Source: Escherichia coli (GTDB lineage: Bacteria > Pseudomonadota > Gammaproteobacteria > Enterobacterales > Enterobacteriaceae). Taken from it: a stretch of 64,000 nt of DNA. Both the position numbers and the translations under genes were made by a program. Within the stretch, counting starts at the first letter, position 1. Every line of letters starts with the position of its first letter. Shown here in pieces: positions 20,206 through 24,896 of this stretch. The notes beneath the pieces were generated by a model. That model worked only from the letters and a program-made list of their open reading frames with translations. It made no database searches and was not told the DNA's origin. The stretch is from NCBI RefSeq assembly GCF_003334785.1, contig NZ_QOWV01000010.1; one strand, 5' to 3'.

Positions 20206-21828
20206 TTACAGTTTCGGACCAGCCGCTACCAGCGCGGCACCCGCAGGGGTGTCGGTGTATTTATCGAAGTTGTCGATAAACAGTTTCGCCAGGGTTTCGG
20301 CTTTTTCCTGCCACTGTTCCGGAGAAGCGTAGGTGTTACGCGGATCGAGAATCTTCGTGTCTACGCCCGGCAGTTCGGTTGGGATCGCCAGGTTAAACAT
20401 CGGCAGAGTGAAGGTTTCTGCATTATCCAGCGAACCGTTGAGGATGGCGTCGATAATGGCGCGGGTATCTTTAATCGAGATACGTTTGCCAGTGCCGTTC
20501 CAGCCAGTGTTAACCAGATAAGCCTGCGCGCCCGCCGCCTGCATACGTTTCACCAGCACTTCTGCGTACTGAGTCGGGTGCAGCGACAGGAATGCCGCGC
20601 CGAAGCAAGCGGAGAAGGTTGGCGTCGGTTCGGTGATGCCACGCTCAGTACCGGCCAGTTTGGCGGTGAAGCCAGAGAGGAAGTGATACTGGGTTTGATC
20701 GGCAGTCAGGCGAGAAACCGGCGGCAACACGCCGAAAGCATCAGCAGTCAGGAAGATAACCTTAGTCGCGTGGCCCGCTTTGGAAACCGGCTTAACAATG
20801 TTATCGATGTGATAGATCGGATAAGAAACGCGGGTGTTCTCGGTTTTTGAACCATCATCAAAGTCGATAGTGCCATCTTCACGCACGGTGACGTTTTCCA
20901 GCAACGCATCACGACGGATAGCGTTGTAGATTTCAGGTTCCGCTTCTTTCGACAGCTTGATAGTTTTTGCGTAGCAGCCGCCTTCGAAGTTAAACACGCC
21001 GTCATCGTCCCAGCCGTGTTCGTCATCGCCAATCAGGCGACGTTTCGGGTCGGTGGAAAGGGTGGTTTTACCGGTGCCGGAAAGGCCGAAGAACACCGCA
21101 ACATCGCCTTTCTCACCAACGTTGGCGGAGCAGTGCATAGAAGCGATACCTTTCAGCGGCAGCAGGTAGTTCATCATCGAGAACATCCCTTTCTTCATTT
21201 CGCCGCCGTACCAGGTGCCGCCAATCAGCTGCATGCGCTCGGTCAGGTTAAACGCCACGAAGTTTTCGGAGTTGAGACCCTGTTCTTTCCACTGCGGGTT
21301 AGTGCACTTCGCGCCGTTCATAACGATAAAGTCTGGTTTGAAACCTGCCAGTTCTTCATCGCTCGGGCGAATAAACATGTTTTTGACAAAATGCGCCTGC
21401 CAGGCCACTTCGGTGATGAAACGGACGGAAAGACGAGTATCCGGGTTCGCACCACAGAAAGCGTCGACAACGAACAGACGTTTGCCGGAAAGCTGCCTGG
21501 TCACCAGGCCTTTCAGATGCTGCCAGGTTTCCGGAGAGAGAGGTTTGTTGTCGTTCTTACCTTTGCCTTTGTCTGCCCACCAGAAAGTATCGCGAGTGGT
21601 ATCGTCACGGACGATATACTTATCTTTTGGTGAACGACCGGTGAAGATCCCGGTATCGACGGCAACGGCACCCAGATTAGTTAACACCCCGCGCTCATAA
21701 CCTGTCAGGCTCGGATCGAGCTCTTCCTGATACAGCAGGTCGTAGCTTGGGTTGTAAACGATATCATGTACGTCACTGATACCATAAGCCTCGAGTTCTT
21801 GCGGGGTCAAACCATTGTTAACGCGCAT
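20206..21828 (-). CDS. pck: Phosphoenolpyruvate carboxykinase (ATP)
   Basis: Conserved start [17 protein letters not shown] (540 aa); longest ORF extends 23 codons upstream. Confidence 0.95.
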
Positions 21829-21943
21829 TTCACTGCTCCTTAGCCAATATGTATTGCCTGAATAGTAAAGTCTTTTTGGGGGTGTTAACCGCGACAAGGC
21901 TCATAGATTTACGTATCTGGAGAAATTCATATTTGACAAAAAA

Positions 21944-21965
21944 CTCCGTGATTCCTGTCACGAAA
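21944..21965 (-). promoter_or_regulatory. CRP-like site in pck promoter
   Basis: ccgTGAttcctgTCAcg about 120 bp upstream of the pck ATG. Confidence 0.35.
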
Positions 21966-22206
21966 CGGTTGCTATTATCGCAGAAATAGCATTTTAGGTG
22001 TGGAAAATGTTCTCAAAAGGTTAAATCTTGGTTTATATGGCGGGAATATTGTGAGTGGAATCGCATTCCTGAATGAAATTGATGCAAATTCAACCGGTAA
22101 AGTATCGATTCACCACGCTAACTTTTTTTGATTATTTTCTGAAAAAAGCAAAATACTACTGCCCGGATGCGATAATTAACCCACCTTTTGATTCTGGATA
22201 ACCAAC

Positions 22207-23931
22207 ATGGATAACGTTGAACTTTCACCCGCAACACGCTGGGGGATGATTGCTACCGGATTACTTCAGGGTCTGGTTTGCTACCTGCTGATCGCCTGGC
22301 TTTCCGGAAAAAATCACAGTTGGATTGTTTATGGCGTGCCTGCGACCGTCGCGTTTTCATCCGTTTTACTCTTCTCCGTGATCTCTTTTAAACAGAAGCG
22401 CCTTTGGGGATGGCTGGCGCTAGTGTTTATTGCCACGCTGGGGATGAGCGGCTGGCTGAAGTGGCAAACTGATGGCATGAACCCCTGGAGAGCTGAAAAG
22501 GCGCTTTGGGATTTTGGTTGCTATCTGCTGTTGATGGCAATGTTGTTGCTACCGTGGATACAACAAAGCCTTCGCATCCGCAATGACAGTAGCCGCTATC
22601 GCTATTTTTACCAGTCAGTATGGCATAACGTACTTATATTACTGGTGATTTTTCTCGCCAATGGCTTGACGTGGCTGGTGCTTTTACTGTGGAGTGAGTT
22701 GTTTAAACTTGTTGGCATCACGTTTTTCAATACGCTCTTTTTTGCAACCGACTGGTTTATTTATCTCACGTTAGGTCTGGTTACCGCGCTGGCGGTGATC
22801 CTCGCGCGAACACAGTCACGTTTAATCGACTCTATTCAAAAGTTGTTCACGTTAATCGCCACGGGGTTGCTGCCGTTAGTATCATTGCTAACCCTGATGT
22901 TTATCATCACCCTGCCGTTTACGGGCCTGAGCGCGATTTCTCGCCACATCTCCGCCGCCGGGTTGCTGTTGACGCTGGCCTTTTTGCAATTGATCTTAAT
23001 GGCTATTGTCCGCGATCCGCAAAAAGCGTCACTTCCCTGGACAGGGCCGTTGCGTTGCCTGATTAAAACCGCTTTGCTGGTTGCTCCGCTGTATGTGTTC
23101 GTCGCCGCCTGGGCGTTATGGCTGCGGGTCGCTCAGTACGGCTGGACTGTCGACCGCTTGCAGGGCGTGCTGGCGGTGCTGGTGTTACTGGTGTGGTCGC
23201 TGGGGTATTTTGTCAGCATCGTCTGGCGTAAAGGGCAAAATCCCGTTGTTCTTCAGGGCAAAGTGAACCTTGCGGTTTCGTTATTGGTGTTGGTGATACT
23301 GGTGCTTCTTAATTCGCCGGTGCTGGACAGTATGCGCATTAGCGTGAACAGCCATATGGCGCGTTATCAGAGCGGCAAAAACACGTCAGACCAGGTAACT
23401 ATCTACATGCTCGAGCAGAGCGGTCGCTATGGACGTGCTGCGCTTGAGTCGCTGAAAAGCGATGCCGGGTTTATGAAAGACCCGAAACGCGCGCGGGATC
23501 TGCTGATGGCGTTAGATGGAGAGCAACATCTTCAGCAACAGGTATCGGAAAAAGTATTAGCCGATAATGTGTTAATTGCCCCTGGTTCTGTTAAACCTGA
23601 TGCGACATTCTGGTCGGCCTTAATCCAGGATCGCTATAACGTGATGACCTGTATTGAAAAAGACGCCTGCGTCCTGGTCGAGCAAGATCTGAATAGTGAT
23701 GGTCAGGCGGAGCGGATCCTGTTTGCTTTTAATGATGACAGAGTCATTGTCTATGGCTTTGACTCAGACAGAAAAGAATGGGACGCGCTTGATATGAGTT
23801 TACTTCCGAACGAAATAACGAAAGAAAAATTACTCACAGCTGCGAAGGATGGAAAACTGGGGACGAAGCCTAAAGCGTGGCGCGATCTTGTAGTGGATGG
23901 TGAAAGGCTGAATGTGAATCTGAATGAGTGA
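22207..23931 (+). CDS. yhgE: Inner-membrane protein YhgE, function unknown
   Basis: 574-aa ORF with many hydrophobic segments; recognised as YhgE. Confidence 0.85.
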
Positions 23932-23963
23932 CAAAGCGCATCAGGTGTATTAGTCGTAAAATC

Positions 23964-23984
23964 CGGCAGAGCCCTCTCTGCCGG
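23964..23984. terminator. Hairpin between convergent yhgE and hslO
   Basis: ccggcagagccctctctgccgg. Confidence 0.4.
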
Positions 23985-23993
23985 ACATACTCA

Positions 23994-24872
23994 TTAATGA
24001 ACTTGCGGATCTGCCGGAGACGCGTTGTTGCGGATTTCAGCAATATCCATCGCATTGAACAGATAGTGGTTACCGCAGTAATCACAATGCATGTCAATTT
24101 CGCCATCTTCCGCCAGGATGCTATCAACTTCTTCATCAGGCAGCGTTTTCAGCGCATCGGCGCAACGTTCACGCGAGCAGGTGCATTTGAACTCCACATC
24201 CTGCGGATCGTAAACCGTCACCTCTTCTTCGTGATACAAACGCCACAACACTTCGTTTGCCGGTAAGGTCAGCAGTTCTTCGGTTTTGATGGTTTCGGTT
24301 AGCGTCGCCAGGTGGTCAAAGTCGTCCTGCTGGGCATTTTGCGCAGGCATTACCTGCAACAACATACCGCCTGCAGCCGGTTTGCCGTCTACGTCGCCGG
24401 TGCGAATAAACAGGCGCGTCGGCAGCTGTTCAGAACGCATAAAGTAATCTTCCAGGCAGGCCGCCAGGGTATCACCTTCCAGACCAACTACGCCCTGATA
24501 GCGTTCGCCTTCGCTCGGGGTAATGGTGATCACCACGTAACCATTGCCGACCAGCGTTTTCAGGTCGGCATTTTCTGGAATTTCGCCCTGCACGCGCGCC
24601 ACACCGCGCATCTGCTGGTTATTGTTACCGTTAATAACCGCCAGATTCATCGGACCGTCGCCCTGCAGCTGTACGGTGATATCACCATCAAACTTCAGCG
24701 TAGCGGTTAACAGGCTGGTCGCAACCAGCAGTTCTGCCAGCACGTTTTTAACGGGCTGCGGATAATCGTGGTTCTCAAGGATCTGTTGCAGGGTTTCCGA
24801 AACGGTTACCAGTTCGCCGCGCACGGCAAAGTTTTCAAACAGATAGCGATGTAATTGGTCATGTTGCGGCAT
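23994..24872 (-). CDS. hslO: Hsp33 redox-regulated chaperone
   Basis: Conserved start [12 protein letters not shown]; C-terminal CxC...CxxC zinc/redox switch; start may be 6 nt further upstream (24878). Confidence 0.93.
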
Positions 24873-24896
24873 AATCATCTCTCTTGCAGGTGACAG

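Follow-up and report, generated by a model that had tools for sequence, protein, structure and literature searches.

The window analysed here, a stretch of 64,000 nucleotides of Escherichia coli DNA (contig NZ_QOWV01000010.1), carries on its + strand an ORF of 574 amino acids, the ATG of which is the first possible start after an in-frame stop (Table 1). Positions 21700 to 24100 are 100% identical to E. coli K-12 MG1655 and match 5426 of 5426 complete E. coli genomes. The ORF is the already catalogued yhgE (DUF4153) of E. coli K-12, and RefSeq labels its product, WP_000370879.1, as a 'DUF4153 domain-containing protein'. Upstream lie ompR-envZ and the divergent pckA, and downstream the convergent hslO-hslR-yrfG-igaA genes; igaA is four genes away from yhgE. 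The annotated start of pckA is the ATG at 21828 (- strand); a longer ORF option begins with a TTG at 21897, and RefSeq takes the ATG. With this start, the spacer between the two genes is therefore exactly 378 bp long. A first-pass annotation had described a 574-residue YhgE encoded divergently from pck across 378 bp, and the ORF and RefSeq coordinates agree with that description.

Table 1. Features of the yhgE locus, in window coordinates
Feature	Position	Strand	Basis or detail
pckA-yhgE divergent spacer, 378 bp	21829..22206		ORF list, RefSeq annotation
Second CRP-like palindrome, candidate, CGTGATTCCTGTCACG	21947..21962		two mismatches to consensus
CRP binding site TGTGAGTGGAATCGCA	22050..22065		one mismatch to consensus
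yhgE coding sequence	22207..23931	+	574 codons + stop; ORF list, MG1655 annotation identity 100%
Membrane domain, residues 8-368, 11 predicted TM helices, N-terminus predicted cytoplasmic	22228..23310	+	AlphaFold2, charge bias
DUF4153 (PF13687) match	22360..23451	+	hmmscan
Most conserved motif, R307-x2-Q310-Y-G312-W-T-x2-R317	23125..23157	+	A1 alignment
C-terminal domain, residues 371-574, predicted periplasmic	23317..23928	+	entry segment 371-417, helical sub-domain to ~483, beta sheet 488-568
Cysteine pair C482 + C488, putative disulfide	23650..23670	+	each in 116/126 homologs (92%)
Calcium-type loop D494-L-N-S-D498-G-Q-A-E502, FG-GAP/VCBS kind	23686..23712	+	between first two beta strands
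Terminator-like hairpin	23962..23985		perfect 10-bp inverted repeat, 4-nt loop; repeat search, sequence

The control region of yhgE and pckA

yhgE and pckA have a control region in common. The first-pass annotation had proposed as much for yhgE and the CRP-regulated pck, and the spacer does hold a CRP ChIP site: the sequence of TGTGAGTGGAATCGCA is identical to that of the CRP ChIP peak 'yhgE/pck' in ETEC (PMC4287617). In L004, another enterobacterium in which the region is syntenic, the counterpart of TGTGAGTGGAATCGCA is TGTGACTGTAAGCGCT and that of the candidate palindrome CGTGATTCCTGTCACG is TGTGAGACCGGTCACG; both are conserved. The pck-proximal half of the spacer is conserved in this distant relative, and the yhgE-proximal 150 bp or so are not alignable with it. 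No sigma-70-like promoter for yhgE emerged from a consensus scan, the ATG is preceded by just a weak Shine-Dalgarno-like GGA, and Rfam gave no match at E ≤ 1 either in the 378-bp spacer or between 21700 and 24100. yhgE would be monocistronic and read in the direction away from pckA, from a promoter that is poorly conserved and departs from the consensus.

In Salmonella, SprB is a direct activator of both yhgE and pckA, with a value of 1.18 for each in Table S3 (PMC5013294; PMC6726612). Co-regulation of the two genes has thus been shown for one Salmonella regulator, SprB, and CRP is a candidate for the same role. In O157:H7, the yhgE mRNA fell 3.3-fold at entry into stationary phase, and the gene was classed with growth-related genes (PMC2241611). 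Control by GalR through the spacer was considered and rejected, as the published weak GalR ChIP motif sits within the pck coding sequence, at 21753-21767.

The terminator-like hairpin lies in the 62-bp convergent spacer between yhgE and hslO. Read for hslO, which is on the - strand, the A-run that precedes the stem on the + strand becomes a T-run downstream of the stem; on the yhgE strand no T-run follows the stem.

Family and predicted architecture of YhgE

An exhaustive phmmer search of 1.84 billion representatives returned 2043 proteins at E ≤ 1e-3, 418 of them at E ≤ 1e-30. The homologs align from residues 5-10 through the C-terminus, and the best 150 of the 2043 are nearly all 560-640 amino acids long, with a full-length alignment that includes the C-terminal domain. 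Judged by the AFDB50 and named matches, the family ranges over Enterobacterales, Xanthomonadales/Lysobacterales, Burkholderiales and Desulfuromonas. The conservation figures given below refer to an alignment of 126 full-length homologs (A1), with a mean column identity of 25%.

With hmmscan, YhgE gave one end-to-end match to Pfam DUF4153 (PF13687), over residues 52-415 (i-Evalue 2.6e-31; model positions 3-372 of 373), and by this profile match it is a member of the DUF4153 family. The C-terminal 194 residues of the E. coli protein had no Pfam match, DUF7057 included, even at E ≤ 10. DUF7057 (PF23167) did match 4 of 52 aligned homologous C-terminal domains at E ≤ 0.001 and 7 at E ≤ 0.1, and one homolog, P0271, has both PF13687 and PF23167. 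The homologs with DUF4153 and DUF7057 equal YhgE in length and architecture; the C-terminal domain of E. coli YhgE is, however, too diverged for a direct match to DUF7057, and the homology is indirect, through the alignment.

Nothing significant was found for whole YhgE in NCBIfam, PADLOC or PHROGs: the single NCBIfam match, with an unrelated model, was non-significant and scored 11.8 bits (E=0.079) where the cutoff is 550. Searches of PADLOC and PHROGs with the C-terminal domain also returned nothing. A phmmer search of PDB sequences had zero matches, and the A1 profile found only chance matches there (E ≥ 0.66). With Foldseek against AFDB50, the 50 matches listed were exclusively DUF4153/DUF7057 proteins, none of them an annotated relative. 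In these PDB sequence searches and among the listed Foldseek matches, no solved or functionally annotated relative of the fold was found. There was no fold or profile similarity to the known transporter superfamilies (MFS, APC/LeuT, ABC-2, RND, MOP, DMT, Amt), nor did we find the fold, with a periplasmic-loop acidic motif or His/Arg set, of GT-C glycosyltransferases, O-antigen ligase (Wzy_C) or SEDS proteins. YhgE had been called uncharacterised, and it keeps that standing: DUF4153, a family of no known function and without a solved structure, is its sole family match, and the HMM and structure searches gave no annotated relative. Our literature search found no study of the function of yhgE, DUF4153 or DUF7057, and the supplements of Chaudhuri et al. 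have no yhgE entry.

Two former or apparent affiliations can be set aside. DUF4153 was once placed in the Pfam clan of the Cache sensor domain; the region consists of all-helical membrane spans without an output domain, and Upadhyay et al. found DUF4153 to be unrelated to Cache and due to leave that clan (PMC4822843). The Gram-positive YhgE/Pip 'phage infection protein' family is likewise unrelated, with no Pfam or NCBIfam link to E. coli YhgE, and has in common with it only the gene name and a membrane location. Because of this name collision, 'yhgE' in the literature mostly denotes the YhgE/Pip family or a Lactococcus pilin gene.

The protein had also been described as polytopic with a long C-terminal soluble region. 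This was borne out by Kyte-Doolittle hydropathy, with about 11-12 hydrophobic segments in residues 1-380 followed by a 194-residue hydrophilic tail, and by an AlphaFold2 model computed from A1 (pLDDT 94, pTM 0.88), in which 11 long helices (residues 8-368) come first, then a helical sub-domain (375 to about 483) and finally a beta sheet (488-568). Modelled by itself, the C-terminal domain reached a pLDDT of 94.5. An internal duplication of the membrane domain was looked for and rejected, with an hhalign probability of at most 1.6% and no detectable sequence repeat.

Over the 126 homologs, K and R residues summed to 10.8 in the predicted cytoplasmic loops against 5.4 in the predicted periplasmic loops, the family average per loop being 1.1-2.2 inside and 0.5-1.05 outside; in both the hydropathy profile and the AlphaFold2 model, the cytoplasmic loops are very short. 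This charge bias, taken together with 11 spans, places the N-terminus inside and the C-terminal domain in the periplasm. From the bias and from the cysteine pair we infer that the topology is N-in, C-out and that the C-terminal domain is periplasmic. C482 and C488 probably form a periplasmic disulfide, given their conservation. In the membrane domain, the predicted periplasmic half holds 14 of the 18 positions with ≥90% conservation and 22 of the 34 with ≥80%; overall conservation is only slightly higher in the periplasmic half (0.466) than in the cytoplasmic one (0.416; Mann-Whitney p=0.07). The best-conserved segments are TM5-TM10, which form the core, and residues 370-417, the best-conserved stretch of the C-terminal domain (0.53); TM1-4 are poorly conserved.

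In the AlphaFold2 model, the C-terminal domain has a four-strand meander whose strands 488-493 and 502-507 flank the calcium-type loop. The loop residues are frequent in their columns (D494 83%, N/D496 77%, D498 84%, G499 58%, E/D502 88%), and hydrophobic residues come next. D-x-[ND]-x-D-G-x-x-[ED] is the calcium-loop consensus of FG-GAP/VCBS repeats, and blades of the FG-GAP type are typically binding modules. In YhgE such a loop, D-x-[DN]-x-D-G-x-x-[DE], occurs within a blade of four strands; a significant FG-GAP/VCBS profile match and tandem propeller blades were not found. A profile of the C-terminal domain (A2) gave sub-threshold matches in PDB, through the loop, to the CRTAC1 propeller (E=0.053) and to integrin alpha-6 (E=1.2), and FG-GAP_3 matched 1 of 52 homologous C-terminal domains at E ≤ 0.001 and 8 at E ≤ 0.1. 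The FG-GAP/VCBS blades of the integrin alpha and CRTAC1 propellers are, like that of YhgE, four-stranded meanders with a calcium-type loop between strands 1 and 2. Those propellers, however, are seven-bladed, whereas YhgE has one blade packed on a helical sub-domain; moreover, the similarity is non-significant for E. coli YhgE itself, for which calcium binding is putative. The blade is a case of module resemblance, not of membership in a propeller family. The model and the alignment point to a C-terminal domain made of a helical bundle and a single FG-GAP-like blade with a predicted calcium loop.

Evolution and genomic context

Every one of the 5426 complete E. coli genomes carries yhgE, essentially always full-length, with occasional IS insertions in or beside the gene. 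Its protein product diverges rapidly between species. YhgE of L004 is 34% identical to that of E. coli, against 92% for EnvZ, 90% for Pck, 85% for HslO, 84% for HslR, 80% for YrfG and 69% for IgaA; identity to the E. coli protein is about 57% in Citrobacter, 53-61% in Salmonella and 43% in Enterobacter. In three allele comparisons within E. coli, the dN/dS of yhgE was 0.25-0.32 (membrane part 0.14-0.22, C-terminal domain 0.35-0.37), as compared with 0-0.03 for pck and 0 for hslO. This is a roughly tenfold higher ratio than in the neighbours, and it peaks in the C-terminal domain.

In a set of 90 cluster representatives from Escherichia, 247 of the 574 positions varied. The variable positions occur throughout the protein, membrane helices included (fraction variable 0.41 for the TM domain, 0.47 for the C-terminal domain), and the least variable blocks were 165-287 and 370-410. 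Localised hypervariable patches on the periplasmic side were considered and rejected, as the variation within Escherichia runs through the whole of YhgE, and neither the allele dN/dS nor the site variability in Escherichia gave a sign of localised positive selection. yhgE is under weak but real purifying selection across the whole protein. Its 2043 representative homologs, a dN/dS below 1 and its presence in every one of the complete E. coli genomes make it a real gene and not a chance ORF.

Others have singled out the gene in genome-wide studies. Touchon et al. reported the YhgE region as a hotspot of phylogenetic incongruence in E. coli and suggested diversifying selection (PMC2617782), and in a Salmonella study yhgE was among the core genes that best discriminated lineages (PMC3575412). 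Matches to yhgE in phage and plasmid collections were confined to chromosomes filed there by mistake, copies on megaplasmids or chromids, and one truncated fragment, which adjoins blaCTX-M-62.

In eleven homolog neighbourhoods, the gene was always stand-alone, either in the enterobacterial pck/hslO synteny or in unrelated contexts, and no conserved operon partner or envelope-pathway neighbour was found among them; no operon-based inference can therefore be drawn. The sole recurring neighbour was a P-II gene, confined to a single Lysobacteraceae clade, where it lies 110 bp upstream of the homolog and in the same orientation. In many bacteria, amtB follows a P-II gene (glnK-amtB).

Conserved positions and possible roles

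R307 and G409 are invariant in the 126 sequences of A1. Conserved at ≥90% are Y131, W139, N141, W156, L161, L165, F166, F174, F184, P223, F232, L236, G240, Q310, G312, R317, N354, P371, Q383 (H in E. coli), R386, G406, L413, C482 and C488. N141 and N354 are conserved polar residues inside membrane helices. In the R307-R317 motif, G312 and R317 are conserved at 98% and Q310 at 91%; helix order and charge bias predict that the motif sits at the periplasmic turn between TM9 and TM10. That YhgE has no recognisable catalytic motif, as noted on first inspection, fits the alignment, in which no conserved His/Asp/Glu catalytic set is evident. At several conserved positions E. coli YhgE has another residue than the consensus (A266 instead of N, H383 instead of Q, T398 instead of D). 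Of the 78 positions conserved at ≥70% it nevertheless retains 85%, a share equal to the median of the family, and the notion that it is a degenerate member of the family was rejected.

The membrane core is without a conserved ionisable residue, and three conserved arginines lie among many conserved aromatics. This combination suggests that an anionic envelope molecule is bound, and possibly handled, by YhgE. As the overall best explanation we tentatively favour a conserved-arginine site that faces the periplasm and binds an anionic envelope lipid or glycan. YhgE is a non-essential inner-membrane protein, by its alignment of DUF4153/DUF7057 architecture, and its working site would be at the interface of the outer leaflet and the periplasm, where the residues most nearly invariant in the family would gather. 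The site may be formed by the periplasmic end of TM7 (L-P-F-T-G), the TM9-TM10 turn (R307, Q310, Y311, G312, W313, R317) and the first periplasmic helix (P371, D374, Q/H383, R386); that these conserved residues cluster in three dimensions into one site we infer more weakly, from helix order and topology. Candidate ligands would be a phospholipid, a periplasmic glycan or an intermediate linked to undecaprenyl phosphate. The domain with the calcium loop may serve as a ligand- or partner-binding module, and Cys482-Cys488 probably staples the C-terminal domain.

The GT-C glycosyltransferases (ArnT, PglB) and the O-antigen ligase WaaL, with about 11-13 membrane helices and a periplasmic domain, have a layout that resembles that of YhgE. 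In WaaL, arginines at the periplasmic surface bind the undecaprenyl pyrophosphate carrier. It is this analogy that underlies the proposed mechanism, the arginines of YhgE being predicted at the periplasmic surface of the membrane.

The same structural features can be read in other ways. A secondary transporter or permease for a small solute, with the periplasmic domain in substrate capture or gating, seems unlikely to us; it would be in line with the historical annotation as a 'putative transport protein' (some homolog entries are named 'Transport protein'), with a polytopic protein of 11 helices in the AlphaFold2 model, with the conserved polar residues N141 and N354 within those helices, and with the Lysobacteraceae homolog that follows a P-II gene, as amtB does. 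We regard as somewhat less doubtful, while still improbable, that YhgE is a non-catalytic scaffold or receptor facing the periplasm, whose fast divergence would reflect co-evolution with a partner or an arms race with phages, colicins or contact-dependent toxins that enter via inner-membrane proteins. An ortholog only 34% identical within a conserved syntenic block where the neighbours are at 69-92% would fit such a role, as would a dN/dS about tenfold that of the neighbours, with its top values (0.35-0.37) in the C-terminal domain, and the incongruence hotspot with suggested diversifying selection (PMC2617782). Moreover, an FG-GAP-type blade would typically bind, and with very short cytoplasmic loops any signalling would need a partner. 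However, dN/dS is well under 1 in both domains, the variable sites in Escherichia are spread over YhgE (0.41 TM, 0.47 C-terminal) in a manner more like generally weak constraint, no relation to PADLOC or PHROG families was found, and no partner gene is conserved nearby.

That yhgE is, in E. coli, a decaying or functionless remnant persisting by chance we hold to be highly improbable. Fast evolution, a weak ribosome-binding region, the lack of a consensus promoter, occasional IS insertions and the absence of a growth defect in an evolved line that lost the gene would all be compatible with decay, but the gene is full-length in essentially all of the 5426 complete genomes, its dN/dS of 0.25-0.32 indicates purifying selection, 85% of the family-conserved core is retained, and the two-domain architecture has been kept in about 2000 representative clusters across several proteobacterial orders. 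The favoured reading, a periplasm-facing arginine site for an anionic lipid or glycan, can also be carried further. DUF4153 with DUF7057 would then be a structurally new proteobacterial class of inner-membrane protein, with no relation to any solved fold, in which the arginine-rich site and the calcium blade together handle an envelope lipid or lipid-linked glycan; this extension we consider quite unlikely. Were it true, YhgE would fill an unassigned step of envelope biogenesis or recycling, and its loss would lead to a longer lag phase and contribute to beta-lactam tolerance.

Two published mutants bear on phenotype. An ampicillin-tolerant evolved K-12 line carried a change of the yhgE start codon along with a cyaA nonsense mutation, and the authors considered the cyaA mutation enough to explain the tolerance of the line (PMC7394356). 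In a nanowell screen, a yhgE::Tn mutant was one of three with an unusually long lag phase, an observation that was not validated (PMC5996734). Both mutants show that yhgE is dispensable, and neither establishes a function; long lag phase and beta-lactam tolerance are unvalidated leads.

yhgE is a 'y-gene' that belongs to the core of E. coli, the best-studied bacterium, and has about 2000 representative homolog clusters. The present analysis adds a confidently predicted architecture, a predicted topology, testable residues, the finding of no fold relative, and a contrast in evolutionary rate with the neighbouring genes. It leaves current concepts unchanged and makes yhgE a well-prepared target for functional work, with R307, Q310, G312, R317, R386, C482, C488, D494, D498 and the predicted calcium loop as experimental handles. 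For phylogeny or typing, it matters that the ortholog at this locus is syntenic, yet under constraint some ten times weaker than that on the housekeeping genes around it.

Sites around the pck-yhgE spacer

The GalR motif ATGATATCGTTTACA, identified by ChIP and published as a weak site assigned to 'yhgE/pck', has an exact match 62 bp 3' of the pck start codon. This position lies within the pckA coding sequence and outside the intergenic spacer. A second CRP-like palindrome, CGTGATTCCTGTCACG, is found in the spacer at its pck-proximal end; L004, the distant enterobacterial relative that shares the synteny, has kept it. In the promoter/terminator scan the same palindrome was also scored, on the minus strand, as a terminator-like hairpin. 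How the spacer is measured is affected by the start codon chosen, as the mechanical ORF calls differ from RefSeq: that of pckA begins at a TTG 23 codons upstream of the RefSeq start of this gene (21828), and that of hslO at an ATG 2 codons upstream of its own (24872).

Features at the yhgE locus and at homologous loci
Feature	Location	Remarks
pckA mechanical ORF	window 20206-21897	TTG at 21897
GalR motif ATGATATCGTTTACA	window 21753-21767	pckA coding sequence
CRP-like palindrome CGTGATTCCTGTCACG	window 21947-21962	spacer
Last seven yhgE codons	window 23911-23931	21 nt
Perfect 10-bp inverted repeat	window 23962-23985	4-nt loop
hslO mechanical ORF	window 23994-24878	ATG at 24878
insQ/TnpB gene and transposase remnant	L011:3923-5332	strain C9
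P-II (GlnB/GlnK-type) and DUF4153 genes	L012:6547-8827	same strand
P-II and DUF4153 genes	L013:6553-8830	same strand
P-II and DUF4153 genes	L014:4772-7049	same strand
Truncated yhgE-like fragment	L019:3434-3625	plasmid pJIE137, NZ_EF219134.1; unannotated

The 3' end of yhgE and mobile elements

The inverted repeat falls within the 62-bp convergent yhgE/hslO spacer, and because its T-run is confined to the hslO side, it looks like the terminator of the hslO operon. yhgE itself lacks an obvious intrinsic terminator. When K-12 yhgE was used as the megablast query, the alignment ended at base 1704 of 1725 in many E. coli genomes, so the final seven codons vary by lineage, including in genomes with about 97% identity over the remainder of the gene.

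Mobile elements are found repeatedly at the locus among E. coli isolates. In strain C9, the insQ/TnpB gene and transposase remnant lie between yhgE and hslO; in an O6:H16 strain yhgE is split by an IS1 insertion, and one further isolate carries an IS1414 copy somewhere inside the 21700-24100 stretch.

DUF4153 genes in other contexts

The plasmid fragment, with about 50% identity to YhgE residues 26-104, adjoins the far side of ISEcp1-blaCTX-M-62 and the cupin gene 'orf477', and is carried by IncN and other conjugative plasmids of Klebsiella, Enterobacter and E. coli (L019, hits H31-H38). Presumably, it derives from the chromosome of the donor (Kluyvera-like) and was co-mobilised by ISEcp1; if so, the CTX-M progenitor would have a DUF4153 gene as its neighbour on that chromosome.

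Among the loci examined, pairing with a P-II gene is limited to one Lysobacteraceae clade, in which the P-II gene precedes the DUF4153 gene, 110 bp upstream. The place that the DUF4153 gene holds here, after a P-II gene, belongs to amtB in many bacteria.
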